From a candidate division Hyd24-12 bacterium UBA6080 (GTDB lineage Bacteria > Fermentibacterota > Fermentibacteria > Fermentibacterales > JCC-6), in contig DIXM01000002.1 in the NCBI GenBank assembly GCA_002436025.1, forward strand, positions 727,164 to 791,163: a stretch of 64,000 nt of DNA. The letters are read 5' to 3'. The number at the start of each line of letters is the position of its first letter. Positions within the stretch are counted from its first letter, which is position 1. A program made the translations under genes and the position numbers. The notes under the pieces are model-generated. The model was given only the letters and a program-made list of their open reading frames with translations, had not been told where the DNA came from and made no database searches. This document shows positions 3,626 through 62,947 of this stretch, one piece after another.

Positions 3626-3979
3626 GGGGGCGACAGGTCTCGACGGGTACGGATGCGGTTTTGCGGGAGCATGCCGAGGTTCCGCCGGCCTCGTTAAAAA
3701 GGCGGGAACAAACAACTGCCGCGTAAGCGACAACCCGTCACCCTCCAGTTAGGGTGGCCGTCCTCTCAACCTTCGCCTTCGAGGTTGTACAGGGCGACGC
3801 AATGAAGGCTGGCCTCCATCCCCCCACCTTCCGGGGTGAAGAGGCGAGAACAATGGAGGGCATGTCCGGAGAGCGCCGTCCGTTGCCCACCTCCGGCCAA
3901 GAATGAGTACGGACTAAGCATGTAGCGCCTTCTCAGCCCCCGTGCGCGGACGCGGGTTCGAATCCCGCCGCCTCCACCA
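3626..3979 (+). ncRNA. ssrA: tmRNA (SsrA), ~354 nt
   Basis: 5' GGGGGCGACAGGTCTCGACGGG (tmRNA 5' consensus GGGGnnGAnnnnnTCGACGGG). 3' tRNA-like end GGACGCGGGTTCGAATCCCGCCGCCTCCACCA with T-arm and CCA. Acceptor stem 5' GGGGGCG pairs with 3' CGCCUCC including a G3:U wobble (alanine identity). The tag ORF is probably the frame ending ...ACAACUGCCGCGUAA (..TTAA*), uncertain. Confidence 0.9.
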
Positions 3980-4247
3980 GTCCTCAAGAGGTCTTTCCAG
4001 ACTCCGTAGCCGCGTGTGGTACGAACAACAGCGGATTGTCCGGAACACAGCTCATTCCGGAGTCAGACCGCATGCGACAAGCGGACCACTGAAGCAGATC
4101 TCCTTCGGTTTGCCGGACGTGTTTGCATGAATTGACAAACAGCCATATACTAATGCGCTGTTCCGTGCACGATCGATGATCTTTGCCTTTTCACAAACGT
4201 TTTCGGTTCAAGTGAAATGCACGGGCTAACACTTGGGAGGGATCAGC

Positions 4248-4874
4248 ATGAGGTCGTTGCTTTTTCTGTTTGCTTCGGTGATTACCGTTTCAGCCGCAGA
4301 CATAGTCATCGGCAGCCAGGGCTCGCAGTCAAGCGATCCCTGGTGTGGTTCCTGAAGCTCTCAGATGCACTACCAGGTGGTGGTGCTCGACAGCGAGATG
4401 GGAAATGCCATGGACATTCTGTCCATTGCCTGGCAGAGGGCTGCCAGCGGCAGCAGTGAGGGTCATTATTATGGTGTTGAGATCCACATGGGGCTCTGCG
4501 CCGATGACGAGCTCGGTGCGACATTCGACGACAACTGGATTCCGGGCACCCGCACCCTTGTTTTCGCGGCGGACACACTTGACCTCAGCGGGAACGCCAA
4601 CGATTGGTCAGCTGTCACACTTGACAACCCCTTCTGGTACGGTGGTGAACAAAACCTTCTCATCGACCTTCAGTGGACCTCCGCCAATACGGCGTACAGC
4701 TTCTACACCTGGAGATGGGATACAGGTGCCGTCCGCTGCGTGAAGGCTATCAGCCTCGCCGCCCCTACTGGCGTGCTCTCTACACAGATCTCGGAATTGA
4801 TGTTCTCGGGCGATTTTTCGCTGTCCCAGAGCACATTCGGCGAGATCAAGACCGTTTTCGCCTGTGAAGATTGA
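4248..4874 (+). CDS. Secreted small protein, paralog 1, with in-frame TGA at 4353-4355 in a CGS-TGA (CxxU-like) motif: candidate selenoprotein of an uncharacterised family
   Basis: ATG 4248 with GGGAGG RBS. Signal peptide MRSLLFLFASVITVSAADIV. Same frame continues through TGA into ORF 4365-4874 (MHYQVVVLDSEMG...). The TGA position and context are conserved in two paralogs. A stem-loop lies 12 nt downstream of the TGA. Confidence 0.6.
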
Positions 4875-4884
4875 GGAACCATAC

Positions 4885-5517
4885 ATGAAAACACTTTCCA
4901 CTCTGTTGCTTCTTCTTGCAGCTGTTCCTGCAAGCGCCGCGACGGTTACCGTTGGCAGCGAGGAGCTGTCCTCCGGCGAACCACTTTGCGTATCTTGAAT
5001 CGAGTCGCTGCGCTACCAGGTGGTAGTGCTCGACTCTGAGATGGGCGGCGCGTTTGAATTCGACACCATCAGTCTCAAGAGGCACAGCTCGGGATCGACA
5101 TCCGGTCAGACCACTTTTGCCGACTTCGAGATCTGGGCGGGACTGGCTGAGTCCGATGTTCTCGGTGACAACTTCGAAGACAATTTCATCCCCGGCACCC
5201 GGACACTTCTATTCAGCCGCGAAAGCCTTCTGATTGAGGCCGAACCGAATGCCTGGATACCATTCGTACTCGATTCCCCCTTCTGGTACGGGGGAACAAA
5301 GAACCTCATCATCGAGATCCTCTGGTCCGAAGGTGAGGAACTGGGTACGGAGTGCGTCTACACATGGCAATGGAACACCGGAACCATGCGATGCGCATCC
5401 GGGCCGTACGATTCGGAAACAGGAAGCCGGACCAGCGTGATACCCCTCATTCAGTTCTCAGGGGACATGACCCTTTTGAACACCACTTTCGCCGGAGTCA
5501 AGACTTCCTTCCAGTAG
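4885..5517 (+). CDS. Secreted small protein, paralog 2, with in-frame TGA at 4996-4998 in a CVS-TGA motif: candidate selenoprotein
   Basis: ATG 4885. Signal peptide MKTLSTLLLLLAAVPASA. In-frame TGA, then IESLRYQVVVLDSEMGG... (ORF 5020-5517 in the same frame). Tandem with paralog 1. Equivalent hairpin after the TGA. Confidence 0.6.
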
Positions 5518-6035
5518 CGCTGACACACGGGTGACGTTGAGGCGTTTCGCTTGGGTCGGATCGGAATGGAATGCTCCATTGCTGCGTTTGAATACGGATA
5601 CTACTCTGTGACATGGAGTTAAGCGTTTAGCCTGCTTTTCGATCTGACTTTGCATACCGGGGAAGTTGTTTTGGTTTCTCCTGGCCAGGAAGCTGACATT
5701 CCTTCTGAAACAAGGGTACATTTGATTTGGGGTCCTCCTCGCTGGAGGCGGAGATGAGCAGCAAGTGCTTAAGCCAGGAAGCGAAAACAATGTGAGTGCT
5801 TGGGTTTTACCTTTTATCAATTCTGTCAGAGGCTTTACCAATGCTTGCCTTTCTCTCAAGCAACCAGCTCCCAGGGTAGTCCCGCGCCTGTACTCAGAAA
5901 GTTCACCCCATGAGTTCACCACCACCAGCTCCTTTCAACGCCGGTTTCGATGCGACAGCAGGATGGGGGAAGGAAGCAGACGGTGCCAGTTGGTTTGCCA
6001 ACTGTTTTCCTGCGAATGGATGGAGAGGAAAACCC

Positions 6036-7055
6036 ATGCCAAAAGGTAATGCTTTTCTGAGCAGAACAACTGTTTCAGCAGTGTTGCTGCTTCTGGCAGC
6101 AGGGTGCGGCTCAGACGACGCCACAGGTCCCTCCGGTGAAAACAGTTTCTATCGGCAGGAAATGCGAAGCTTCGTCATGGAGCTATCCTCATGGGCAAAG
6201 GGACAGCATCCCGGGTTCATCGTAATACCCCAGAACGGCCAGGAACTGGTAACCGACAACGGAGACCCCGGGGGCACGCTGCAGATCGCCTATCTGGCTT
6301 CAATGGACGCAACCGGCAGGGAGGACATGTTCTATGGTTACACTTCTGACAATGTCCCCACACCAGCGTCCGAGGCGGAATACCTGCGGGACCTCTGCCT
6401 TGTCTGCGAAGAAAACGGCGTTCAGGTGCTGGCTACCGATTACTGCTGGACTCGGGAGTACGTTGATGACTCCTATCAGACGAATGAACTGTACGGTTTC
6501 ATATCGTTCGCAGCCGATCAGCGGGAGCTCTACACCATTCCCGGTTATCCTGCGGATCCATGGAATGTGAATTCAAATGCAGTTACGAACATTGACCAGG
6601 CGGCCAACTTCCTGTATCTGATAAACGGCGACAATTACGGAACGAAGCAGCAATTCATCGACGCTGTTTCCCAGACATCCTATGACGTTGTCATAATGGA
6701 CCTCTTTCATAACGATGAGCAGTTCACTCCCTCTGACCTTTACCAGATCCGTGTGAAGAGCGACGGCGGTGAAAGGCTTCTGATCTGCTACATGAGCATC
6801 GGTGAAGCCGAGGATTACAGGTATTACTGGGACCCTGCGTGGAATACACAAAAGCCGTCCTGGCTGGGAAATGAAAACCCGGACTGGCCGGGTAACTACA
6901 AGGTTGAATACTGGGACCCTGCGTGGGAGGCAATCATCTTCGGCAACGACGAATCCTATCTGCAGAGGATCATCGACACGGGATTTGACGGAGCCTATCT
7001 CGACGTCATTGACGCATTCGAGTATTTCGAGAACCTTTCTGTCCGGAGAAATTGA
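6036..7055 (+). CDS. Lipoprotein, putative GH114/TM1410-like glycoside hydrolase (TIM-barrel)
   Basis: Lipobox LLLAAGC after M at 6036. LICYMSIGEAEDYRYYWDPAW motif typical of the GH114 / endo-alpha-1,4-polygalactosaminidase-like family. TGA stop. Confidence 0.5.
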   Translation: MPKGNAFLSRTTVSAVLLLLAAGCGSDDATGPSGENSFYRQEMRSFVMELSSWAKGQHPGFIVIPQNGQELVTDNGDPGGTLQIAYLASMDATGREDMFYGYTSDNVPTPASEAEYLRDLCLVCEENGVQVLATDYCWTREYVDDSYQTNELYGFISFAADQRELYTIPGYPADPWNVNSNAVTNIDQAANFLYLINGDNYGTKQQFIDAVSQTSYDVVIMDLFHNDEQFTPSDLYQIRVKSDGGERLLICYMSIGEAEDYRYYWDPAWNTQKPSWLGNENPDWPGNYKVEYWDPAWEAIIFGNDESYLQRIIDTGFDGAYLDVIDAFEYFENLSVRRN

Positions 7056-7304
7056 TCTATCTCACCAGAATGACCTTTTCCGACGCGGTTAGACCACCGC
7101 CCGATATCCTCAGGATGTAAACCCCCGGAGGAAGTGGCCCTCCCATGTAATCACGATCGTTCCAGTTCAGATCGTGCTGGCCAGTATCCACAGGCAGGGA
7201 AAAGGTCTTGAATTCTGGATCGCAGTATCGAGCGCGCCAGCGTCTTGACCTTTCGGGAAAGTGGAATCATTGTATTAATTGTCGTGCCGGAAGGGAAGCG
7301 AACC

Positions 7305-7805
7305 ATGAAAAGGCTGGCTGTGGCTATGGCGGTACTTGCCGCGGGGTGCGGTAGCACTACCGGTCCGGAAGGGCTGGGAACCCCTCTCGATGTGCTGACC
7401 TTGCTCGAAGATGCGTACAGCTACCGGGACCCCGGACTGTTCACGTGGGTGCTTCAGGATGGCTATTTTCACAGCATTCCCGAATGCGACTGGGAAGATT
7501 ACGACGGCGACGGGGTCGTGGATACGGGCTGGAACGCCGAACTCCAGACAGAGAGGATCCTGTTCTTCTTCATGGGGTGTTCCGAGATAACCCTTTCAAT
7601 CGATGAGGAAAACGCTTCGGTCGAGTACCTTTCCGCCGACGAGGCTGTTCTTTCGTTCGACTTCCAGCTCGACTTCACCGGGACCGGCCCCGATTACATC
7701 AGCAGCGGGGGAAGCTGGACCCTGCTTGTTTCGTGTGCGCCGGGTGAGCGCTGGAAACTCCTCGAAGCTTCCGATGCGGACGGTTGGGTGGGCTTCCTGC
7801 CCTGA
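7305..7805 (+). CDS. Hypothetical lipoprotein
   Basis: MKRLAVAMAVLAAGC lipobox; no recognisable domain; TGA stop. Confidence 0.45.
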   Translation: MKRLAVAMAVLAAGCGSTTGPEGLGTPLDVLTLLEDAYSYRDPGLFTWVLQDGYFHSIPECDWEDYDGDGVVDTGWNAELQTERILFFFMGCSEITLSIDEENASVEYLSADEAVLSFDFQLDFTGTGPDYISSGGSWTLLVSCAPGERWKLLEASDADGWVGFLP

Positions 7806-7814
7806 AGCGAAGTG

Positions 7815-9266
7815 TCAGCGGACCAGAACGACTCCGCGCTGAAGAAGAACACCGGTTGAGGAATCCACAAGAAGGTACACACCGGGAGGAAGATGAAATG
7901 CCTCCCTTTCGCCGGGCCTCAGCATGACCTTCCCGACAACCCTTCCCGCCGAATCGAGTATCACGGCCTCTCCGCCGGCTATTCCCTGAGCCGTCAAGAA
8001 ACCTCTCCCCGGACATTCCACGAGGCTGACAGGAACCTGCGCGGGCACGGGTTCGCTGTACGTTCCGCCGTTCGCCACGGGCCATGAGGTGTGTATGACA
8101 CAGATCCCCGGACCGGTTGTTCCGGCCATGGCCACGGCGACAAGGGGAGTGGGGTACTGGTCCGACTCGAAAAGGCACATGGACGAGCCGGGGGAGTTGG
8201 GCAACTGGGTCTGGGGGGTCGTTGCCGGTGAGGAGAAAACGAGGGGAGGGGCGTTGAACGTGCCCGCCGTCAGGGCGGCAAGACGCCACTGGCTGCCGTC
8301 GTGGAAGCAGTCCGTCGCAACCGCTGATAGCGGGTAGCCGTCGTCGTGATAGCCGTTGTCACCACTTATCAGATAGATATGTAAGCTGCCGTAGCACAGC
8401 AGGTCCGCCCGGGGCGAATATGATCCTGTGACGTTCCCGATGAAATTCAGGTTCGGGAAACAGAATTCTTCCTCGCCGGTATCCCAGACAGGCTCCTCGC
8501 CGGGAATGTCAACCATCCATGTGCCGGGCAGATACCCGAAGTGGGAGACGGCAAGACTCGGGACCGGGGAGTCGCAGATATCCATGGTTCCGAAGTAGCA
8601 GGTGCTCTGGCCGCATAGCAGTTCACCCGTATAGCCGTCCATGACCATGACCGACCCGTTCCAGACACTGCCGCGGTCGATGGAATAGCCCATCTCCGAC
8701 CAGCCGTTGCCGCTTATGTCCGTTTCTGTCACCTTGATCCAGGCATCCTGGGTGGAACCGGCCCACTGAAACCACAATTCCTGGCCTGACTGGCCGTCAA
8801 GGGCAAAGATCCCGCCCGAGCTCGAGACGGCGTCTTTCATGGCGAGAACAACAACGTCTCCGGGTTCAGGGCCCACTATACCCTCAACGTACTGCACGAC
8901 CTTATCCTGCGGAGAGCTCCATATCTGCGCGCCTGTTGCCCCGCACAGGAGGAATACCCTGGGAGAGCCCGCCTGACCGGCGGCCACCTCGGGCACTCCG
9001 TCGAGGTTGACGTCGCCCACGGTTCGCAGACAACCGGGTCCGGCAACTCCCAGGGCCGATTGATTGCTCCAGATCACCGCTCCTGTGAGGCCGTCGAGAC
9101 AGTGTATCCCAACCCCCATGCTCTCGAGGGATGCTGTGAAGATGTCCCCTGTGCCGTCTCCGTTCACGTCTCCCGCACATTGGACGGCGGTGAAGCAACC
9201 TTCAGGAAACGCGGTCCAGAGGATTCCCTGGGGGCCGGATATGATTGCCAGAAGCAGAGCGATCAT
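7815..9266 (-). CDS. Secreted beta-propeller (FG-GAP/PQQ-like repeats) protein with C-terminal T9SS-type sorting domain
   Basis: Signal peptide MIALLLAIISG. Repeated DVNGDG/ISGNG motifs. C-terminus ...FHLPPGVYLLVDSSTGVLLQRGVVLVR resembles a T9SS/FlgD-Ig-like CTD. Confidence 0.55.
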   Translation of the reverse strand: MIALLLAIISGPQGILWTAFPEGCFTAVQCAGDVNGDGTGDIFTASLESMGVGIHCLDGLTGAVIWSNQSALGVAGPGCLRTVGDVNLDGVPEVAAGQAGSPRVFLLCGATGAQIWSSPQDKVVQYVEGIVGPEPGDVVVLAMKDAVSSSGGIFALDGQSGQELWFQWAGSTQDAWIKVTETDISGNGWSEMGYSIDRGSVWNGSVMVMDGYTGELLCGQSTCYFGTMDICDSPVPSLAVSHFGYLPGTWMVDIPGEEPVWDTGEEEFCFPNLNFIGNVTGSYSPRADLLCYGSLHIYLISGDNGYHDDGYPLSAVATDCFHDGSQWRLAALTAGTFNAPPLVFSSPATTPQTQLPNSPGSSMCLFESDQYPTPLVAVAMAGTTGPGICVIHTSWPVANGGTYSEPVPAQVPVSLVECPGRGFLTAQGIAGGEAVILDSAGRVVGKVMLRPGEREAFHLPPGVYLLVDSSTGVLLQRGVVLVR

Positions 9267-9544
9267 TTCATTCCCCTTTCGGCCCGAGGATCGATTCCAA
9301 CCAGAAGTATAACATGGCGTGTACAATAATCCAGATCGTCAGCATTCTCTGCCCTTGATGGCTGGAGCTGGAGGGCTGATGCTTGCTTTTCATTGGCCCG
9401 TTTCTATGATATGGCAGTAATGTAATTGAATGGAAACGAGTTAGCCTGTTGTCCATTCTGCCAGTCCATCTTTTGGTATCTTCAGGGAATCGCCCGAAGG
9501 ATCGGAAGCGGTCTCCCTGTGAAAAGACTGAGTGCTGGAGATAA

Positions 9545-10360
9545 ATGATCGATTTCTTCCTGCAGAGCGGGCCTGTCGTTCAGGCACTTGTGGCCACCCT
9601 GTTCACCTGGGGAGTTACGGCCCTGGGCGCCGGGCTTGTTTTCTTCACCCGAACGGTCAGGGCAAGGGTCCTTGATTCGATGCTGGGGTTTGCCGCAGGC
9701 GTAATGATAGCCGCCAGTTTCTGGTCATTGCTGGCGCCCGGCATTGAAATGGCCGAACAGATGGGGCAAACGGCCTGGCTCACGGCCGTGATCGGATTCA
9801 TGGCGGGCGGGCTTTTCATGAGGCTCAGCGACCGTATCCTTCCGCACCTTCACCCGGGTATGGGAATGGAGAGCAGCGAGGGCATAAAGACGTCATGGCG
9901 GAGAAGCACGCTGCTGGTGCTGGCGATAACGCTGCACAACATCCCCGAGGGGCTTGCCGTGGGCGTTGCCTTTGGCGCGGTTTCGGCCGGTCTTCCATCA
10001 GCCACGCTGGGTGGGGCGATTGCGCTGGCCATCGGAATAGGCCTTCAGAACTTTCCCGAGGGGGCTGCCGTGTCACTGCCGCTACGGCGGGATGGGATGG
10101 GAAGGGGCAAAAGCTTCCTGGCGGGGCAGGCATCCGGTATCGTGGAACCGGTGGCGGGCGTTTGCGGCGCCGCATTCGTCCTTCACATGCAGGAGATACT
10201 GCCCTACGCACTGTGCTTTGCCGCGGGAGCAATGATCTTCGTTGTCGTGGAGGAACTCATCCCTGAATCCCAGCGTACACCGGCGAACATTGACATGGTT
10301 ACGATTACCACACTGGCCGGTTTTGCCGTGATGATGATGCTGGATGTGGCGCTGGGATGA
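9545..10360 (+). CDS. zupT: ZIP family metal (zinc) transporter
   Basis: [13 protein letters not shown] and QNFPEGAAV motifs, 8 TM helices, ~270 aa. Confidence 0.8.
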
Positions 10361-22675: not shown

Positions 22676-23434
22676 ATGGAGTTCGTTCTGGCGTTCGAGC
22701 TTTTTCTGGGCGGGCTGTCAAGCCCGGACGGCCTCGCTCTGGCATCCGACGGCACAGTATTCGTATCCGAGGAGGCTTCAGGCAGTGTCAGGGGGATAAC
22801 GCCCGACGGCACGGTCTTCACGGCCATGATGGATCTCGACAGCCCCGAAGGCATCGCATGGCACCCCGATCTGGGCATCCTGGCTGTCGAGGACGTTCCA
22901 CGGGGCAGGCTCGTGTCCTCCGTCGAAGGTGTGCTTTCGAGGAGGATCCCGAACCCCGAGGGGGTCGCGGTAAGCGTTCAGGGTGATGTGTTCTACACAT
23001 GGGCCAGGATGGGAGGGCCGACGGGCATATGCAGGTGGACCCCCCAGGGTCCCGATTCCGTCGTGACGCTGCCCCGCGGCTTCATGCTCTCCGGGCTCAC
23101 GGTTGGCCCCGACGGCAACCTTTACGCATGCAACGAGACTCCCATCTCCGGGCTTCTTGTGAGCGTGATCGCGGTCTGTCCCCGAACCGGTGTCTGGCTG
23201 CCTTTCGCTGGCGGTATTCCGTCGGCTGAGGGGCTTCGTTTCTCCCTTGAGGACAGAACGCTGATCGTCGTCAGCGAGGAACTCGGATCCCTTTTCGCCA
23301 TATCGCCCGAAGGGGCGACATCGGAGGCGGCCTCCGGTTTCGGTTCGATCGAAGACGTCATCTTCCTGCCCTGCGGTGACATGCTGGTGACGGACGACAG
23401 CGCGGGAAGCATTTTCAGGGTTCCGGCGCCATGA
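22676..23434 (+). CDS. SMP-30/gluconolactonase/NHL-repeat-like beta-propeller protein
   Basis: Repeated motifs (SPDGLALASDGTVFVSE, SPEGIAWHPD, GPDGNLYAC, SAEGLRF) typical of SGL/NHL propellers. Confidence 0.5.
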   Translation: MEFVLAFELFLGGLSSPDGLALASDGTVFVSEEASGSVRGITPDGTVFTAMMDLDSPEGIAWHPDLGILAVEDVPRGRLVSSVEGVLSRRIPNPEGVAVSVQGDVFYTWARMGGPTGICRWTPQGPDSVVTLPRGFMLSGLTVGPDGNLYACNETPISGLLVSVIAVCPRTGVWLPFAGGIPSAEGLRFSLEDRTLIVVSEELGSLFAISPEGATSEAASGFGSIEDVIFLPCGDMLVTDDSAGSIFRVPAP

Positions 23435-24846
23435 CCCATCATTACAAGCCCGGGAGTTACAGGGAGATCCTCGGCGTAGCTTTCCCGGTCATTGCCGGGA
23501 TGGCTGCCCAGACCGTGATGATGTTCTGCGACAGGATGTTCCTGGCCAGACACAGCGTATGGGAGCTTCAGGCCGCCCTTCCCGCGGGGATTCTCGCTTT
23601 CACGCTGATCTGTCTTTTTCAGGGCGCGGCGGGTTACGCCTCAACCTTCGTGAGTCAAAATCACGGGGCGGGCAACTCAAGGGGGGTGGCCGTGTCCTAC
23701 GCCCAGGGGGTGTTCATCGCCCTGTTCTCGGCTCCCCTGCTTCTGGCCCTCTCAATTCCCGGCCGGTTGATCCTCGATCTTGGCGGTCATGATCCCCATG
23801 TACTCGACCTCGAGGTCACATACTTCCGCTGGATGATGGCGGCGGGAGTGGGCGCCACGCTCAACGCCGGGGCGGCTTCCCTCTGGAGCGGCCTTGGAAG
23901 GACCACCTTCACGATGGTAGCGGGAATGGCCGGCGCTGCACTCAACATCCTTCTGGACTGGATCCTCATCTTCGGCAATCTCGGGTTCCCCGAGATGGGA
24001 ATCGAAGGGGCCGGGCTTGCCACTGCGATAAGCTCCTTCGTCCCCGGGATCATCCTCATAACACTATCTTTGAGAGGAAGGGTCTCCCGTGAGTTCCCGA
24101 TACGGGAGAACTTACGACCCAACGGTGCCCAGGTCCGGAAGACCCTGAGGTACGGGCTTCCCGCAGCTGCCAGTGTCTTCATGGATGTGGCAAGTTTCTC
24201 CGTGTTCGTCTTCCTTACCGGAAGGCTTACCCCGGTGGAGTTCACGGCAAGCAACATAGCCTTCGGCGTCAACAACCTGGCCTTTCACCCCCTGCTCGGG
24301 TTCGGCATAACCACCACTATCCTCGTGGGCCGCTACCAGGGAGGAAGGAACCCGGCAATGGCAGGAAGGGTCACGAGACGCACGCTGCTGGTGGCACTGC
24401 TGTACTTCTCTCTCATCGCAGCTACATTCCTCATCCTGCCCGGCATGTACATGACCCTTTTCCGGAGCCCCGAGACGGAAGTGCCCTTCGACCAGCTTTT
24501 GGCAACCGGAACGACTCTTTTGGCCATCCTTTGCCTGTGGGGAGGCTTCGACGCGGTGAGCCTGATGCTCGGGGGGGCGCTGAGGGGGGCGGGCGACACC
24601 AAGTTCGTGATGATCCTCTCATCGTGTCTTGGGTGGCTGTTCTGGATACCGGGCATCTTCCTCCTTTACCAGAGCCCCGGGATGAGTGTTGTCACTCTGT
24701 GGCTTTTCACGACACTTTATGTGGCCCTGCTGGCCCTCGGTTACTTTCTCCGTTACAGGAAGGGCCCCTGGAGGACGATGGTCATGGTGGAACAGGAGCC
24801 CCCGTGTCTCTCCGTACCAGTAACCGAGCCTGCAGGCAGAGGGTGA
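23431..24846 (+). CDS. MATE family efflux transporter
   Basis: 12-TM, 471 aa, typical MATE N-terminus (ILGVAFPVIAGMAAQTVMMFCDRMFLARHS). Confidence 0.75.
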   Translation: MTHHYKPGSYREILGVAFPVIAGMAAQTVMMFCDRMFLARHSVWELQAALPAGILAFTLICLFQGAAGYASTFVSQNHGAGNSRGVAVSYAQGVFIALFSAPLLLALSIPGRLILDLGGHDPHVLDLEVTYFRWMMAAGVGATLNAGAASLWSGLGRTTFTMVAGMAGAALNILLDWILIFGNLGFPEMGIEGAGLATAISSFVPGIILITLSLRGRVSREFPIRENLRPNGAQVRKTLRYGLPAAASVFMDVASFSVFVFLTGRLTPVEFTASNIAFGVNNLAFHPLLGFGITTTILVGRYQGGRNPAMAGRVTRRTLLVALLYFSLIAATFLILPGMYMTLFRSPETEVPFDQLLATGTTLLAILCLWGGFDAVSLMLGGALRGAGDTKFVMILSSCLGWLFWIPGIFLLYQSPGMSVVTLWLFTTLYVALLALGYFLRYRKGPWRTMVMVEQEPPCLSVPVTEPAGRG

Positions 24847-24903: not shown

Positions 24904-25446
24904 ATGCACCAGCTTCTATTCATGGCCATGATCGCGGGAACCGTTACAGTAGGGGAGAACGAGTATCCCCTTTCCGAGCCCCTCTGCGGGGGTTGAGGCT
25001 CGTCAACGATACACTGCCAGTTGGTGGTGCCGTCTGAAGAGCTTCCGGGTCCCTTGACCATCACGGGGTTTGCATTCCACAAAGGCCCCACGGGCGCCCG
25101 GAGCGCCACAGTATCGGAAGCGGCAGTGTTCATAGGCATCGCGGGAGGTGATGAACTGGGTCCTGAATTTCAGGCAAACAGGGTATCCCCGACCAGGGTC
25201 ATCAGCAGCGAAAGACTGACTGTCACCGCTGACGAGGACGGAATGGTGACCTTCACCTTCGATACGCCCTGGGAGTATGAGGATGGTGATATCCTCCTTG
25301 AGCTCAGGTTTGAAGGGGTATCAGGCTATCTTTACGTGTTCGGATGGACAGCGCCGGGCCGAAGGTACCTTTCAAGCGGGGATCTCACGGCTGAACGGGG
25401 TACGGTCTCGGAGAACCTGCCGGTCGTGACTCTGATAACGGAGTGA
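24904..25446 (+). CDS. Small protein, paralog 3 of the 4248/4885 family, with in-frame TGA at 24994-24996 in a CGG-TGA motif: candidate selenoprotein
   Basis: AGGAGG RBS then ATG 24904. MHQLLFMAMIAGTVTVGENEYPLSEPLCGG-TGA-GSSTIHCQLVVPSEE..., continuing in frame as ORF 25021-25446. N-terminal TVTVG..EPLC..TGA aligns with paralog 2. Hairpin after the TGA. Confidence 0.55.
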
Positions 25447-25485: not shown

Positions 25486-26244
25486 GTGAAGGAGTGTATC
25501 AAGAGCTCTTTAAGGAGCGCAGGGGCCTTTGACGTCGGCATCGCATCGCCCCTGGCCGGTTACGACAGGGCCGTTGCCGGTTACAGCCCCCGGGAGATAT
25601 GGCCCCCCTGCAGGTCCATAGTTGTTTTTGCGGTGGCCATGACACCCTGGTCGAACAATACGTTCGTCGGACCCCTGGCGCCCGGTGAGGGTCCGCGCCC
25701 GCTGGGTCCTGTTCCCTCCACTGTCTGTTCCGACCGCTATGCAATGAACAGGCTTGCGCGTCAGATAGCTGCTCCGGTGACTCTGGCCGCCCTTGCCTTC
25801 CTGGAACAGAGCGGTCACGCATCAAGCCTCAGGACCGTTCAGTGCAAACTGAACGGGTACCTTGCCGGACTTGGTGTTTACGGGAAGTCGGGCCTCCTGA
25901 TCCATCCGGTTCTTGGTAACAGGATGTGCCTTGGCGCTGTGATGACCGATGCGGAAATGGAGCCGGACAGCCCCCTTGTGGGCTTTGATCCATGCCGGGA
26001 TTGTTCCCTGTGCATCGATGCCTGCCCGGCGAAGGCCTTCAGCCCCGGGAAGGATTACCCCGGATCATGGTCCCGCGAAGCCTGCACGAAGAAAAGGGCC
26101 AAAATGGAGGCCAGGGGTTTCTACTGCCACACCTGTTACGCAGTTTGCCCCGCGGGAACGATCCCCGACGATGATCTTCTGAGCATCACCGAGATAAGGT
26201 CGCTTTCCCCGAAGACCACCGGGCGTCACTCCCTCCAGCGGTAA
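25486..26244 (+). CDS. 4Fe-4S dicluster domain protein (QueG/RdhA-like ferredoxin domain)
   Basis: CRDCSLCIDACP and CHTCYAVCP cluster-binding motifs. Confidence 0.5.
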   Translation: MKECIKSSLRSAGAFDVGIASPLAGYDRAVAGYSPREIWPPCRSIVVFAVAMTPWSNNTFVGPLAPGEGPRPLGPVPSTVCSDRYAMNRLARQIAAPVTLAALAFLEQSGHASSLRTVQCKLNGYLAGLGVYGKSGLLIHPVLGNRMCLGAVMTDAEMEPDSPLVGFDPCRDCSLCIDACPAKAFSPGKDYPGSWSREACTKKRAKMEARGFYCHTCYAVCPAGTIPDDDLLSITEIRSLSPKTTGRHSLQR

Positions 26245-35411: not shown

Positions 35412-36017
35412 CTATCGGTACAATGCCTTTATGGCTCCGAACGTGCTTTGCCCGAAAGAACCCGGGATATCGTAATCCACGACCAAGTTAGGGTGTTCTG
35501 AGGCCGCTTCCCGCGAGAAGAAATTCTGGTACAATCCTGAGCCGCCGGTTCCGAAGAAAACAATTCCGTAGTTGGGATAGGTCCCCTGAACCCATTCCTG
35601 AACGAGGCCCTTCACATCGAATTCGTACCATCCGTTTTCAGTAACGACGATCTGGTCGTATGAGCCCGCATCGTCGTAGGCGATGCTGTTCACCAGGACG
35701 CTCTCGCTCCATGGTTCCGTCACGCGGAAGATCTCGCACTCCAATGCGCTCCCGGGGTTGCCGTCGTATCTGAAGATGTTCAGGTATGCGGTGTTGACAA
35801 TGGCTTCCTGGGGTAGTGAAGACAGGTCGAAGCTGATAACGATCCGCTGGTCGAAGGAACTGATGTTGTTGGTCCTGAGCTGCTGACTTGACCCGAACGG
35901 CCCCTGGCCGGGCCAGATCCAGGTGTCTGCGTCGGGAAGCTGGACAATGGTCTCGGCGGAGGCCACAGCAGCGATCAGAACCGTCAACATCAAAGCCAAA
36001 GTGACGCTTCTCATCAT
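35412..36017 (-). CDS. Secreted DNRLRE-domain protein ending in the shared C-terminal motif STFGAIKALYR
   Basis: Signal peptide MMRSVTLALMLTVLIAAVASA. TIVQLPDADTWIW...GWYEFDV...SREAASEHPNLVVDY pattern consistent with the DNRLRE domain. Confidence 0.5.
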   Translation of the reverse strand: MMRSVTLALMLTVLIAAVASAETIVQLPDADTWIWPGQGPFGSSQQLRTNNISSFDQRIVISFDLSSLPQEAIVNTAYLNIFRYDGNPGSALECEIFRVTEPWSESVLVNSIAYDDAGSYDQIVVTENGWYEFDVKGLVQEWVQGTYPNYGIVFFGTGGSGLYQNFFSREAASEHPNLVVDYDIPGSFGQSTFGAIKALYR

Positions 36018-36268: not shown

Positions 36269-36961
36269 ATGAAAAACACAGTTCTGCTGCTTATCGCTCT
36301 TTCAGGGCCTGTTTGGGCGGACTTTGTCGATGACTTCCAGTCTTACCAGCCGGGACAGGGCCCTGAGTCATCCGGCAACTGGATCAGGGAGGAGAGCGGA
36401 GGCTACGCCCTGGTGACATCCCAGGGTGAGAACCAGGTGATCGAGGCTTTCTTCCCGGATTCTACCTATCTGGGATACCTTTGCTCTGCGGCGGGTTTCT
36501 GGACGGACGGGTCGGTTTCGATGGGCTTCAGCCCCGATGGCACCGGAAGCCTCGTGAATGTGCTGGCCAGGATGCAGATCACCACGGGCGAAGCCTACGT
36601 GGGAGGCGTGATCGTCTTCCTCCAGCCCTTCACCTATGCCTACATCGGCTATGTGAACACGACGGGAGACTACGAGCTTCTTTACAGCAATTTCGGTCCC
36701 ACGCTGACACCCGGGACCTGGGTCAACGTGGGTCTCACTGTAGAAAACATTGACCCGGTCGTGCTCACCCTTCACATAAACGGCCAGCAGGCCGCCCAGG
36801 TGCTTGACCCTGTGTACCGGCTGGGTTCGGGTCTCTCCGGCTTCGCGATGATCTACGAGGGCGATGTTCCCTCCATCCTCGCCGACGACTTTCAGGTCGT
36901 CCTGAGCGCACAGGCGCTTGAAACGACAACCTTTGGAGCGATCAAGGCGGTGTTCAGATGA
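36269..36961 (+). CDS. Secreted hypothetical protein ending in the shared C-terminal motif TTFGAIKAVFR
   Basis: Signal peptide MKNTVLLLIALSGPVWA. No recognised domain. C-terminal 11 aa nearly identical to the divergently transcribed DNRLRE protein. Confidence 0.45.
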   Translation: MKNTVLLLIALSGPVWADFVDDFQSYQPGQGPESSGNWIREESGGYALVTSQGENQVIEAFFPDSTYLGYLCSAAGFWTDGSVSMGFSPDGTGSLVNVLARMQITTGEAYVGGVIVFLQPFTYAYIGYVNTTGDYELLYSNFGPTLTPGTWVNVGLTVENIDPVVLTLHINGQQAAQVLDPVYRLGSGLSGFAMIYEGDVPSILADDFQVVLSAQALETTTFGAIKAVFR

Positions 36962-45654: not shown

Positions 45655-47910
45655 ATGAGAAGCATGCTTTTTGCTTTGATATGCACTTTGCCCTGCGTTG
45701 CGGGAGAGGTTCTCTACCGCAATGCGGATGCGCTTCCCGAAGCCTGCATACTGGATTCCGACGGGGGCTCCATGACGATCAGGTTTGACCTGCCTGCAAT
45801 CATCGGGTCAACCGGGGATGTTGGCGTTTTCGGTTCTGGAACGACCCTTCGTGTTCCGGGATGGGGAATTCTCGCGGAGGCTGGCTGCCCCGATCTGCCG
45901 GTGCTCAGGAAGCTGGTCATGGTCCCTAACACATGCGGGGTGAGCCTTCAGGTGATCGAGGAGACCACGACCAGCCTCGGAGTCTTCAGAATTCCCCCTT
46001 TCCAGAAGCCCGGACTGAGATCCGGCGGGACCGTTCCCTACGAACAGGACCTGGCAGTCTACGGATCGGTTGGTCCTTTCCCTTCGGGATGCGCGTTCCT
46101 TGAGGGCGTGCATGTGCTGCGGGACATAAGGGTCGCGACAGTCAGGTTCCAGCCCGTCAGGTACGATCCCCTGTCAGGCGAGGCGACGATAGTGACATCG
46201 GCCACCGTCAGGCTGACATTCGGAGGATCAGGCCAGAACGAGCTGAACCGGTCGTTCCAGGGCACGACCCCGGGTTTCATGCCTTTGTACGGCGGAGTTC
46301 TCGGGTATGAGCCCACCGGTCCGTTCCTCGCCGGCTCCTATCTGTTCATCGGAACCGATGAAAGCCTTGATGCGATCGAGCCGCTGGTCAATTGGAAAAG
46401 ACAGAGGGGCTACCGGGTGTTCCTTGGGACGGTGCCAGAGATCGGGTCAAACGCTGAGATGGTAGATAACTGGATCGAAATGGCCTTCATGAACTGGGAG
46501 TACCCGCCGGAATGGATCCTCATCGCAGGAGGAGAGGACCTGGTGCCCGTACCGCTTCACGATGGGTTCGCATCCGACAACATCTACGGAGTCATTGGAA
46601 CGGAGACAAGCGTGCCCTCCATTCACGTCGGCAGGATTACCGGATCCCTTTTGGACCTCCAGTACCAGGCATGGAAGATCCTGCAGCATGAAGCCGATCC
46701 CTTCGAGCCAGGCGAAGTGAGCTGGTTCCAGAAGGCTGTCACCATCGGGTCAAGTGATGCTCTTGATCCGCTGCACTCCTGGGAGCACACGCAGATGTTC
46801 ATGGAACACGGCATCGCCGTTGACTACTACTGCGATGATCCGATGTACGGCGGAACACCTCCATCAATCGAGGCCATTTCAGCGAACATCAATGAGGGAA
46901 GGACCATAGTCGACTACATCGGGCATGGTTGGGAGCAGGGATGGGGTACATCCGGTTTTTCGATCACTGATGTCGCCGCCCTGTCCAATGGCCGAATGCT
47001 TCCGTGGGTGTTCTCGATAGCCTGCAGCAACGCAACCTTCATGAATGGTTACTGTTTCGGCGAGGCCTGGATGACCGAGGGTGAGATGACCGAACCGCAG
47101 GGCGGCCTTGGCTTCATGGGTGCCACCACCGGGAGCCCTTTCGGCCCCACGGATTCTCTTGCAGAATACACCTGGCGCGGCTACTTCGAACTCGAAATCC
47201 ACCACATGGGCGCGGCGGTCGACTACGGCAAGCTGAAGGTCGAGGAGTTCTACGGAGTCGAGAACTATGGCAACAACTGGATGCACATGGTGTTCGGATG
47301 TCCCGAGGTCGACATATACTCCGATACTTCCCCGATCGCACTGCTGGATGCGAGCCACAGCCCCAATATCTGGAGCGGTTCCTGGCCGGTGAACGTCAGC
47401 ACGGTTGGCGGGGACCCGGTTGAGGCCGCTCTGGTCGGGGTGGTCCAGGGCGATGAGCTGCTCGGAGCAGGATACTCTGACAGCAACGGCTTCCTGCAAC
47501 TCGACATCCCCGAGCTGCCATACGGCGGCTCCATGGAGGCGATCCTCACGGTTACGGCTCACAACCTCAGGCCTTACACGGCAAACCTCGACCCCGCACC
47601 CGAGGGGTTTGAAGAGGGGGAGGGAACGGCACTCTTCCTCGCCCCGGTGCTTCCCAACCCGTTTTCGGCCATAACGTCCATCTCCTTCGGTCTGCCCGGG
47701 GCCTCTCAGTGCAACCTTTCCATCTTCGACATCTCCGGGAGACTGGTGCGTACGCTGTTCGAGGGGAGCCTCCCGGGAGGAAGTCAAAGCATTGTCTGGG
47801 ATGGACGTACCGGATCGGGAAGTTCCTGCCCGGACGGCATCTACTTCATCCGGCTGCATACTCCGAACGCGACTCTTGTGGAGAGGGCTGTGCGGCTGGG
47901 CTCAAACTAG
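45655..47910 (+). CDS. Gingipain-like cysteine peptidase (C25 family) with C-terminal T9SS/FlgD-Ig-like sorting domain
   Basis: Signal peptide MRSMLFALICTLPCVAG. YIGHGWEQGW and FSIACSNATF catalytic His/Cys context. C-terminus NPFSAITSISFGLPGASQCNLSIFDISGRLVRTLFEG...GIYFIRL matches the T9SS CTD pattern. Confidence 0.7.
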   Translation: MRSMLFALICTLPCVAGEVLYRNADALPEACILDSDGGSMTIRFDLPAIIGSTGDVGVFGSGTTLRVPGWGILAEAGCPDLPVLRKLVMVPNTCGVSLQVIEETTTSLGVFRIPPFQKPGLRSGGTVPYEQDLAVYGSVGPFPSGCAFLEGVHVLRDIRVATVRFQPVRYDPLSGEATIVTSATVRLTFGGSGQNELNRSFQGTTPGFMPLYGGVLGYEPTGPFLAGSYLFIGTDESLDAIEPLVNWKRQRGYRVFLGTVPEIGSNAEMVDNWIEMAFMNWEYPPEWILIAGGEDLVPVPLHDGFASDNIYGVIGTETSVPSIHVGRITGSLLDLQYQAWKILQHEADPFEPGEVSWFQKAVTIGSSDALDPLHSWEHTQMFMEHGIAVDYYCDDPMYGGTPPSIEAISANINEGRTIVDYIGHGWEQGWGTSGFSITDVAALSNGRMLPWVFSIACSNATFMNGYCFGEAWMTEGEMTEPQGGLGFMGATTGSPFGPTDSLAEYTWRGYFELEIHHMGAAVDYGKLKVEEFYGVENYGNNWMHMVFGCPEVDIYSDTSPIALLDASHSPNIWSGSWPVNVSTVGGDPVEAALVGVVQGDELLGAGYSDSNGFLQLDIPELPYGGSMEAILTVTAHNLRPYTANLDPAPEGFEEGEGTALFLAPVLPNPFSAITSISFGLPGASQCNLSIFDISGRLVRTLFEGSLPGGSQSIVWDGRTGSGSSCPDGIYFIRLHTPNATLVERAVRLGSN

Positions 47911-61267: not shown

Positions 61268-62947
61268 ATGAGAGCGTTGCCGTGGTTGTTCCTTCTTCCA
61301 TCACTTCTGCTCGGTCAGTGGAGCCCTGATTCCACCCAGAATCTCACGATCTGTGACCTTTCGGGTGAGCAGGTCCTTCCCAAGATAGTTCCCACTTCCG
61401 ACGGCGGGTGCTTCATCTCCTGGTTCGATACCAGGTCGGGGAGCTACTGCGTCTACCTTCAGCGGTTGGATTACCAGGGCGTTCCCCAGTTGGGGGATGA
61501 CGGTATCCTGGTGAGCGACCAGCCCCAGATGAGCTGGATCGTTGACTACTCGATGGCGGTCGACGGGTCGGACAACGCGGTTCTCGCCTTTTCGGACGAG
61601 AGGAACGGCTCGGATGAGCTGGACGTTTCGGTCTACAAGGTCAGCAGTACGGGTGAGTTCCTGTGGGGGGAGGACGGGATCTGCCTTTCGAATCCTTCCG
61701 TACCGGGGTTTGAGCCTAACCCGGTCGTCGCCGTGACGGATCAGGGCAACTGCGTGTTTGCCTGGGGAAAGTCCGAAGACACCGACTACCTGGTTTTTCA
61801 GAAGCTCTCACCCTCGGGTGAAAAGCTGTGGGGGGACTACGGTCTTGTTTTGTCGAGCGCTTCGGCAGACCTGTCCTCGCCTGCCATTGTCCCTTCGGGC
61901 CAGGACAGCGTTATCGTGCTGTGGAAAAGCTCGACCGGTTCTTACCCCATGACAGTGACCCACCTCTACGCGGACATGCTGGATGTGAACGGTGAGGGCA
62001 CATGGAGCGACTCGCCGGTTCTGGTCTACAACACCGGCACGATCACTCCGTGGACATTCCCCGGGATCATCGGGGACGGTTCCGACGGGGCCGTGTGCTT
62101 CTGGTACGATTCCCCCACCATGAATTCCTTCGACGTGTGGGTGCAGCACCTCGACAGCCAGGGCATCAACCTGTTCCCCTTCAACGGCGCCCAGGCCTCG
62201 ACTTTCTCTGCGGACAGGCTTCACATGAGCCCTTCGGCCGTCATCAACTCCGCAGGCGTGTGCTTTGCCTTCTGGGTGGAGAGCAACGCCAACCAGAACA
62301 TGTACGGTGTCTACGGCCAGAAGTTTTCTTCAACAGGGGACCGTCTGTGGACGGACAGCGGCCTTGATCTCCTCCCGCTTGGGTCCGAGCAGACGGCATT
62401 CGTGGATGCCCTGGCTGCGGGCGACGGCATCTTCGTATCCTACTTCATCAACGCGTCGAACACATCGTTCAAGGTCCTGAAGCTTGACTTCGACGGGACC
62501 GTCCTCTGGGGGCCCGTCTCCCTGTCCGCAGGAAGCCTTGGTGGCAAGGACGACCCCGTGGTCTGCCCGGGATACGATGACGGCGCGTACTACACCTGGA
62601 CCGACAACAGGGGTGACGGCGGCGTGTACGCCCAGAACATCCAGTCCGACGGAACAATGGGGCAGTACCTGGGCGTTGAGCCAGGTTCGGTCGCGGAGTA
62701 CCTGCGTGTAACCCCGAACCCCTCCCGGGGAGCGGTGAGCTTCGTACTTGGCGGATCTGCGGGAGAGACGGCCATCGTGCGGATCTACGACCTGTCCGGG
62801 CGGCTCGTAGACAGCCTTGGTACGGTCCTGGGGGCTGAGGGCGCCTCACTCTCGTGGAACAGGGCCGGTTCGGTCCCCCCCGGCGTTTACCTCGTGAGGA
62901 TGGAGAACGGTTCCAGGGTTCTTCTGTCACGGATGATCCTGCTCTAG
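61268..62947 (+). CDS. Secreted repeat protein with C-terminal T9SS/FlgD-Ig-like sorting domain
   Basis: Signal peptide MRALPWLFLLPSLLLG. CTD ...VTPNPSRGAVSFVLGGSAGETAIVRIYDLSGRLVDSL...GVYLVRMENGSRVLLSRMILL. Confidence 0.6.
   Translation: MRALPWLFLLPSLLLGQWSPDSTQNLTICDLSGEQVLPKIVPTSDGGCFISWFDTRSGSYCVYLQRLDYQGVPQLGDDGILVSDQPQMSWIVDYSMAVDGSDNAVLAFSDERNGSDELDVSVYKVSSTGEFLWGEDGICLSNPSVPGFEPNPVVAVTDQGNCVFAWGKSEDTDYLVFQKLSPSGEKLWGDYGLVLSSASADLSSPAIVPSGQDSVIVLWKSSTGSYPMTVTHLYADMLDVNGEGTWSDSPVLVYNTGTITPWTFPGIIGDGSDGAVCFWYDSPTMNSFDVWVQHLDSQGINLFPFNGAQASTFSADRLHMSPSAVINSAGVCFAFWVESNANQNMYGVYGQKFSSTGDRLWTDSGLDLLPLGSEQTAFVDALAAGDGIFVSYFINASNTSFKVLKLDFDGTVLWGPVSLSAGSLGGKDDPVVCPGYDDGAYYTWTDNRGDGGVYAQNIQSDGTMGQYLGVEPGSVAEYLRVTPNPSRGAVSFVLGGSAGETAIVRIYDLSGRLVDSLGTVLGAEGASLSWNRAGSVPPGVYLVRMENGSRVLLSRMILL

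Follow-up and report, generated by a model that had tools for sequence, protein, structure and literature searches.

A candidate family of exported jelly-roll selenoproteins with a conserved in-frame TGA in Fermentibacteria

A tandem pair of genes, here called A and B, occupies positions 4248-5517 of a 64,000-nucleotide (nt) stretch of DNA (the window) from the candidate division Hyd24-12 bacterium UBA6080 (contig DIXM01000002.1, positions 727,164 to 791,163), and a divergent relative, gene C, lies further along the same stretch. Each of the three reading frames is crossed by a TGA codon close to its start, and sequence comparison makes it likely that all three are selenoprotein genes of an undescribed family, in which TGA is recoded as selenocysteine (Sec, U) in the ordinary bacterial way. 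The TGA, the coding segment upstream of it and a hairpin downstream of it recur in all related loci examined, far more than expected by chance, and the family is found so far in Fermentibacteria and in metagenome contigs. A candidate novel selenoprotein family with a recoded TGA had been proposed for A and B by a reading of the letters alone (the sequence-only reading), and this proposal is supported by the conservation of the TGA, by homologues carrying cysteine (Cys) in its place, by a hairpin that fits the bacterial Sec insertion sequence (SECIS) and by the absence of any match among Pfam and NCBIfam models.

Gene A (4248-4874, 208 codons; all features of A and B lie on the + strand) starts at an ATG with a ribosome-binding site, GGGAGGG (4235-4241), read from the sequence 6-7 nt ahead of it. 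The predicted product opens with the signal peptide MRSLLFLFASVITVSA (4248-4295), recognized by eye from its basic N-terminal residue, hydrophobic core and AxA-like site with predicted cleavage after VSA, and continues as ADIVIGSQGSQSSDPWCGS up to the TGA at 4353-4355. Beyond this codon the frame stays open as SSQMHYQVVVLDSEMG... for 172 codons until the TGA stop at 4872-4874, so that the predicted Sec36 ends the motif Cys33-Gly-Ser-Sec36 (4344-4355, TGT GGT TCC TGA). Gene callers annotate only a 169-amino-acid (aa) open reading frame (ORF) beginning after the TGA. Gene B (4885-5517, 210 codons) has its ATG ten bases past the end of gene A, and its ribosome-binding site GAGGA (4873-4877), 7 nt ahead of the ATG, overlaps the stop codon of A. 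Its predicted signal peptide MKTLSTLLLLLAAVPASA (4885-4938, cleavage after ASA, read from the sequence) is followed by ATVTVGSEELSSGEPLCVS and the TGA at 4996-4998, after which the frame runs on as IESLRYQVVVLDSEMGG... for another 172 codons to the TAG at 5515-5517, and Cys35-Val-Ser-Sec38 (4987-4998, TGC GTA TCT TGA) is the corresponding motif. When the two proteins are aligned, both TGAs fall in one shared column. The sequence-only reading had described both genes in just these terms, with ribosome-binding site, ATG, signal peptide, in-frame TGA and continuing frame, and had placed the TGAs at one aligned position; direct inspection agrees with it on these points. It had, however, exchanged the short N-terminal strands, since DIVIGS belongs to the gene with DPWCGS (A) and TVTVGS to that with EPLCVS (B).

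Is TGA a stop codon at all in this organism? It ends the window genes at 5910-7055, 7245-7805, 9545-10360, 7815-9326 and 23431-24846, together with 33 of the 47 stretches in the window that stay open for 250 codons or more, and about 30% of the long ORFs end with TAG or TAA. Because TGA serves as the ordinary stop of neighbouring genes, the genetic code is standard and not reassigned, and the earlier claim that the recoding is gene-specific, made from true stops in the neighbours, is borne out by the larger count. A reassigned code in which TGA means Trp or Gly was considered and discarded, since TGA ends most of the long ORFs as well as genes that are complete by Pfam.

A search of 5.8 billion proteins returned only 18 clusters, all of 159-170 aa and all made of the post-TGA part alone, and the DNA 5' of every called ORF was read to recover the upstream part. 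In a scan of one genome per species, the family was present in 11 metagenome-assembled genomes (MAGs), seven of which are labelled Candidatus Fermentibacteria/Fermentibacteraceae or Hyd24-12 and two Aegiribacteria. The tandem A and B pair is kept in all 11, and in every MAG copy a start codon and a signal peptide are followed by a conserved mature N-terminus and an in-frame TGA. Most of these copies have CGS, CVS, CCS or CCG ahead of the TGA, and the Aegiribacteria B copies have C-x6. When five metagenome contigs are included, the copies without Cys at this position number 33, and every one of them has TGA, never TAA or TAG, at protein identities that go down to about 30%. Across eight species, the 20 codons ahead of the TGA vary at 18-19 of their third positions and at 7-10 of their first and second positions, and this concentration at third positions means that the segment evolves like coding sequence. 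Sequencing or assembly errors could be suspected of having made the TGAs, the sole point in favour being that the sequence is a metagenome assembly. The same TGA is found in independent assemblies (JGI, ENA, NCBI and Logan) of many samples and species, which refutes this explanation and leaves it with a negligible probability.

The family extends further than the called ORFs suggest. When a profile was searched against 1.84 billion cluster representatives, 1278 matches of two kinds were obtained, namely single-domain proteins of about 155-210 aa and large surface proteins in which the domain occurs 2-8 times, the latter having no Cys at the Sec position. Among the best 150 matches, 65 are short representatives, and about 50 of these start just after an xRYQ motif, as though cut at a TGA. 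For five such truncated representatives (26-41% identity to gene B) the DNA was fetched, and the TGA was present in five of five, in the contexts PFCAT-U; PFCAS-U and PLCAN-U; PFGC-U; CFPFGS-U; and PFCH-U. About 10 of the 65 are full length, including four with CGDC or CGFC at the Sec position (P0036, P0062 of Candidatus Fermentibacteraceae, P0064 and P0077), four with a single Cys there (P0056, P0065, P0066 and P0097) and one with Trp (P0112). In addition, a paralogue in a three-gene array, L005c, reads CGAC with the codon TGT at the Sec position. A pairwise BLASTP alignment of gene B with P0062 puts CVS-U opposite CGDC, with the TGA facing the second Cys. Whether Cys-containing homologues align to the TGA was one of the checks suggested with the sequence-only reading, and these eight representatives and L005c supply them. 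Taken together, the forms predicted to carry Sec appear to outnumber the Cys forms in this family.

The protein itself had been said to match no recognized family beyond its CxxU motif, and this impression holds, as no Pfam or NCBIfam model matches it. Scans of A and B with U written as C gave nothing relevant at E <= 1, the Cys homologues had no match in NCBIfam release 20.0 or Pfam-A, the domain of the multi-domain relatives had none in Pfam, and a PDB sequence search found no solved structure related by sequence. The AlphaFold check that had been recommended was run on a Cys homologue with a 26-sequence alignment and on the post-TGA part of gene B, and both gave a confident all-beta jelly roll. 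In the Cys homologue, modelled as an all-beta sandwich with a predicted local distance difference test score (pLDDT) of 91, residues 14-18 and 23-25, which stand before the Cys pair, form the first strands of the sandwich, the CxxC motif lies in a confident loop, the residues equivalent to the signal peptide are of low confidence and the TFGxIKxxF tail is modelled as a helix of low confidence. The same architecture results for gene B after its TGA (pLDDT 90.9). The upstream part thus belongs to the protein, because the segment before the Cys pair supplies strands of the modelled domain. A beta-sandwich jelly-roll fold is indicated both by the models and by structural neighbours resembling carbohydrate-binding modules (CBMs). 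These neighbours include the N-terminal domain of the acetylxylan esterase PbeAcXE (7tog/7toh), a polyvinyl-alcohol esterase (9kqz), the tail-spike gp29 of mycobacteriophage Bxb1 (9d93), PHR domains (3gbw) and the lectin-like domain of Cwp84 (4ci7); the CBM-like neighbours share 8-11% sequence identity with the A/B family and lack the Cys/Sec site, and no CBM family matched at the level of sequence.

These results bear on a simpler account, in which the TGAs are genuine stops and each locus makes a 35-37-residue exported peptide plus a separate cytoplasmic protein of about 165 aa, or consists of decaying pseudogenes. Such an account would agree with the gene callers, which annotate the downstream ORFs only, with the ATG or GTG codons found 4-8 codons past the TGA and with the use of TGA as the main stop codon of the genome. 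Yet a mere stop should not be TGA in all 33 copies when some 30% of the long ORFs in the window end in TAG or TAA, the Cys homologues are single uninterrupted ORFs, the segment ahead of the TGA contributes strands to the same domain, and a product translated from the downstream part only would have neither signal peptide nor first strands. Both halves are moreover under purifying selection across species of only 40-60% identity, which rules out pseudogenes. We therefore regard termination at these codons as very improbable.

Just downstream of the TGA, a regular hairpin is found. In gene A it spans 4357-4394, with the upper stem-loop GCACUACC-AGGU-GGUGGUGC at 4367-4386 and a folding energy of -18.9 kcal/mol over 48 nt; in gene B it spans 5002-5036, with the upper stem-loop GCGCUACC-AGGU-GGUAGUGC at 5010-5029, a 6-bp lower stem and -23.5 kcal/mol over 48 nt. 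In both, an 8-bp stem closes an AGGU loop 11 nt past the UGA, and a lower stem extends the structure. The fdhF gene of Escherichia coli likewise has an 11-nt spacer and an apical loop starting with AGGU. The consensus for bacterial SECIS elements specifies a loop of 3-9 nt with G as its first or second nucleotide, a stem of 4-16 bp, a distance of 16-37 nt from UGA to loop and a minimum free energy (MFE) of -7.5 kcal/mol or lower (PMC13188914, Fig. 2A). All 33 copies agree with it on the four counts, having a 4-nt loop (AGGU or AGUU), a stem of 6-8 bp, a spacing of 19 or 22 nt and an MFE between -7.9 and -24.3 kcal/mol over 48 nt. A search of Rfam gave no family matching the hairpin.

The stem is built from the codons for (H/R)-Y-Q-x-V-V, and synonymous sites are therefore a fair test of whether the RNA itself is conserved. 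In 22 sequences, six of the seven third-codon positions within the stem-loop are invariant and the seventh is only A or G, facing a U, whereas the five third positions directly 3' of the stem-loop all vary. In 31 distinct sequences, 96% of the pair cells are paired, as against 18-75% in controls with a slid register, and the six loop-proximal pairs are never broken; two of these show compensatory double changes, from U-A to C-G and from C-G to U-A. In L005c and P0062, both Cys forms, the residues LRYQ and MRYQ are specified by other codons and no such hairpin is present. Judged from these alignments, an RNA-level constraint is acting on top of the coding constraint in this region. Two hairpin columns that do not pair with each other, 17 and 30 (window 4369 and 4382 in A, 5012 and 5025 in B), were also seen to co-vary, A17 occurring with G30 and G17 with A30 with a single G/G exception, so that one and only one G-U wobble is present in the stem in nearly every case. 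Either selection that keeps the stability of the stem constant or common ancestry could explain the pattern.

Against the selenoprotein reading stand several observations on the RNA and on the organism. The hairpin sits within codons of the conserved peptide (H/R)YQVVV, and part of its conservation is consequently at the protein level; true double compensatory changes are few, with five cells in two pairs; and a hairpin of an unrelated kind occurs in that region of the Cys form P0036. No selA, selB, selD or tRNA-Sec gene was found in the 64-kb window, its flanks of about 20 kb and the fetched loci, which cover a small part of a genome whose contig alone measures 799 kb. With ARAGORN the window gave no tRNA and 20 loci gave no tRNA-Sec, Pfam found no SelA, SelB or SelD among 30 window ORFs, and the flanks beyond the window ends hold a dcw cluster, PFOR and HGD-D genes and no sel genes. 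As only this small part of the genome was searched, the negative says little about the Sec machinery of the source organism. A literature search on Fermentibacteria or Hyd24-12 with selenium also gave nothing relevant on the use of Sec. The unseen machinery and the overlap of protein and RNA constraint in the hairpin are what leave a residual doubt.

On the other side, one metagenome contig (L019) carries two family members together with an hdrA gene (7705-10155, - strand) that has a classic in-frame TGA in TMDCSI-U-ILGPK. This gene is split by the TGA and was called as fragments of 202 and 607 aa, and the closest relatives of its product are likewise truncated at the TGA, as fragments of 607-608 aa. 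At least that organism thus encodes an established selenoprotein. The contig also helps to weigh the possibility that the UGA is read through by something other than Sec, either by a near-cognate tRNA (Trp or Cys) assisted by the hairpin or by a dedicated suppressor tRNA. In its favour, downstream hairpins are in general able to promote read-through, no Sec machinery was seen in the DNA searched, and the Trp codon of P0112, TGG, is one mutation away from TGA. Such read-through would, however, leave much unaccounted for: the UGA is replaced by Cys in nine of ten homologues, a substitution characteristic of Sec/Cys exchange, a Cys is usually present one to six residues from the UGA position, the spacing and G-containing loop of the hairpin fit the SelB-type SECIS consensus, and a known selenoprotein gene with an in-frame TGA shares a contig with two family members. 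We judge read-through of this kind to be unlikely, and Sec insertion is the reading that we carry forward.

Gene C (24904-25446, + strand) is the third, divergent member of the family in the window and is located 20 kb from the A/B pair. It has the ribosome-binding site AGGAGG and reads MHQLLFMAMIAGTVTVGENEYPLSEPLCGG-U-GSSTIHCQLVVP..., with PLCGG directly before the TGA at 24994-24996. Its signal peptide is short and weak, and the C-terminal tag described below is absent. Over a region spanning the TGA position, it shares 32% identity with the Cys form P0036 (E = 3e-23). A SECIS-like hairpin, CACUGCC-AGUU-GGUGGUG (25012-25029, +), begins 14 nt past the UGA, with 22 nt from UGA to loop. The flanking genes encode a MatE efflux protein (23431-24846) and a 4Fe-4S protein of the QueG/reductive-dehalogenase-like type (25486-26244). 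Scans of the window and the loci for further genes with an in-frame TGA, one with a simple codon model and one unfiltered, gave none that was convincing besides gene C and the hdrA of L019.

How do these proteins compare with known selenoproteins? Canonical genes with a SelB-type SECIS (E. coli fdhF type; Zhang and Gladyshev consensus as given in PMC13188914) share with A and B the in-frame UGA followed immediately by a stem-loop, a 4-nt loop with G and then G or U, a stem of 6-8 bp, a spacing of 19-22 nt and the existence of Cys homologues, but they belong to other protein families, and the stem of A and B is made from the codons of the family-specific peptide (H/R)-Y-Q-V-V-V. The sequence-only reading had likened the proteins to SelW/Rdx-type selenoproteins (PF10262). 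A Cys-x-x-Sec motif after a short N-terminal beta strand is indeed common to A/B and to the CxxU/UxxC proteins of the SelW/Rdx and thioredoxin-fold type; the likeness ends at that motif, given a jelly roll in place of the thioredoxin-like fold and a Cys partner that is not fixed. SelW/Rdx proteins are thioredoxin-like alpha/beta proteins whose CxxU lies after strand 1 and before helix 1, whereas the motif of A and B precedes a strand and no helix follows. Membership of the SelW/Rdx or thioredoxin-fold families was accordingly rejected: neither PF10262 nor any thioredoxin-family model matches, and the predicted fold is all-beta.

A secreted selenoprotein had also been called unusual for bacteria. 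Export is indeed a notable trait, but it has precedents, since the extracytoplasmic bacterial selenoproteins listed in PMC13188914 (Table 1) include DsbA/DsbG-like proteins, the SaoB/SaoX binding proteins, a TonB-dependent receptor of the FCYXU type and a DUF1573 protein. Closest in character to A and B are SaoB/SaoX, the FCYXU-type TonB-dependent receptor, DUF1573 (with UGC), the MerT-like proteins and SO_0444 (PMC13188914, Table 1), which are likewise exported or in the envelope, have Sec beside Cys on a scaffold other than thioredoxin and are associated with metalloid-resistance genes. They differ in showing no homology to A and B, whose sequences their NCBIfam and Pfam models miss, and in fold and taxon. 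No model for the families of that table matched A and B in Pfam-A or NCBIfam 20.0, families represented only by cd or PTHR entries not being scanned directly. Several of the transport or binding selenoproteins are tied to resistance to Hg or As, with Sec as a possible metal ligand (PMC13188914).

If A and B are selenoprotein genes, the hairpin 11 nt past the UGA would act as a bacterial SECIS during translation, with SelB and its Sec-tRNA(Sec) binding the AGGU apical loop so that Sec is inserted instead of termination taking place. The full-length products would then be exported via the Sec pathway, cleaved after VSA or ASA, and folded into mature all-beta jelly rolls of about 19 kDa, in which the segment before the UGA provides the first beta strands and the Cys-x-x-Sec pair sits in a loop ahead of the strand (H/R)YQVVVL. 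With lower confidence, this pair may be an extracytoplasmic selenol/thiol centre, which either undergoes redox cycling by way of a selenenylsulfide or acts as a chelator of a soft metalloid, for instance As(III). A and B, kept as a tandem pair throughout the 11 MAGs, probably work together.

A hint about the function of such a centre comes from an arsenic resistance (ars) operon, which directly adjoins the A/B pair in five of the 11 species (L002, 10576-17006; L010, 10580-17009; L012, 10561-16987; L008, 2836-7096; L009, 4793-9008) and is the only neighbour conserved across the loci. It contains arsR, a permease of the ArsP_1 type, DGC, ACR3, an ArsC-rhodanese and ArsM, and between the permease and DGC an unusual envelope-redox module that consists of an ArsE-type thioredoxin, a thioredoxin anchored in the membrane and a DsbD-like membrane protein. 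ACR3 and ArsM score above the NCBIfam cut-offs, whereas the permease has weak scores to the SaoE and SO_0444 models and the DsbD-like protein has a weak score to the DsbD part of the selenoprotein TsoB. In L002, L010 and L012, the operon lies tail-to-tail with the pair, about 80 nt apart; in L008 and L009, it lies head-to-head, with arsR about 190 nt away. In the latter two, arsR, the permease, the two thioredoxins, the DsbD-like protein and ACR3 were detected by tblastn, and DGC and ArsM were not; L008 has a rhodanese fragment on the opposite side of the pair. No in-frame TGA was found in the ars operon genes of L002, which are all Cys forms. In addition, the member on the metagenome contig L017 follows a CusCBA-like efflux operon.

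In those species, the DsbD-like membrane protein and the anchored thioredoxin of the adjoining operon could keep the Cys/Sec centre reduced. It is tentatively possible that the family provides an extracytoplasmic Cys/Sec centre on a binding-type scaffold, perhaps tied to arsenic or other soft metalloids and served by a DsbD/thioredoxin relay. The functional link is weakened by three findings: the ars operon is absent from the window itself and from six of the 11 species, the Cys partner varies in its spacing across the family (CU, CxU, CxxU, Cx5U and Cx6U) and is shifted or absent in some members, and the full-length homologue P0112 has Trp at the Sec position. A still bolder and rather doubtful suggestion is that this would be the first selenoprotein on a CBM-like jelly roll, an exported Cys/Sec centre that traps or converts arsenic, another soft metalloid, or sulfur or selenium species, is recharged by the relay, is sorted to the cell surface as an A/B heterodimer by a tag specific to Fermentibacteria, and has Sec as its default residue.

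The tag just mentioned is the C-terminal tail, TFGEIKTVF in A (4833-4859, +) and TFAGVKTSF in B (5485-5511, +), a tail modelled with low confidence. As a pattern, [ST][FW]GxIKxx[FY] with 0-8 further residues also ends unrelated ORFs, for example as TTTFGAIKAVFR or STFGAIKALYR directly before the stop codon. Such ORFs occur in the window (36269-36961, +; 35412-36017, -) and in other loci (L001 19286-19981; L008 8641-9267, 1910-2767 and 1076-1909; L010 17969-18838; L013 7921-8559), none of them with a Pfam or NCBIfam match. We know of no description of this tag, and to judge from its recurrence the TFGxIKxxF tail is probably a lineage-specific sorting or anchoring tag.

Other sequences of the window concern the envelope. 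A gingipain-like C25 peptidase with a FlgD_ig tail is encoded at 45655-47910 (+) and a 559-aa protein matching the Por_Secre_tail sorting-domain model at 61268-62947 (+), and the C-terminus of the protein at 7815-9326 (-), for which Pfam gave FG-GAP and PQQ_2, resembles a type IX sorting tail by eye only. These three features suggest that the envelope of the source organism is diderm and contains a type IX secretion system. In a Fermentibacteraceae MAG (L025), an Omp28-like type IX secretion protein (6688-7695, +) stands beside a Cys-form member of the family; its score to the 'Omp28-related selenoprotein' model NF045500 is weak (41.7 bits, cut-off 200).

A transfer-messenger RNA (tmRNA) gene (3626-3979, +; Rfam RF00023, 147.7 bits), unreported by ARAGORN, lies 270 nt upstream of gene A. 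Genes for tmRNA are frequent integration sites, and no signs of a mobile element were seen near this one. A promoter-like site, TTTGCA-18-TATACT (4122-4151, +), is found about 97 nt upstream of gene A as a consensus match only. Downstream of the pair come a GH114 gene, a small ORF of lipoprotein-like type and genes for a beta-propeller protein and a ZIP transporter, and this gene order is common to the close relative L007 only.

At present, A, B and C are annotated only as N-terminally truncated hypothetical proteins, as standard gene callers drop the 5' third of each gene, and further members could be sought by using the highly regular hairpin as a model. If the assignment is confirmed, the known selenoproteins would gain a family that is unusual both in its scaffold, an all-beta CBM-like jelly roll, and in its location outside the cytoplasm. 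The apparent majority of Sec over Cys forms would make the family useful for asking why Sec is preferred there, and the recurrent adjacency to an ars operon with a DsbD-like protein and an anchored thioredoxin offers a concrete hypothesis of extracytoplasmic metalloid handling. Fermentibacteria are common in anaerobic digesters and sulfidic sediments, and confirmation would show that this uncultured phylum uses selenocysteine.

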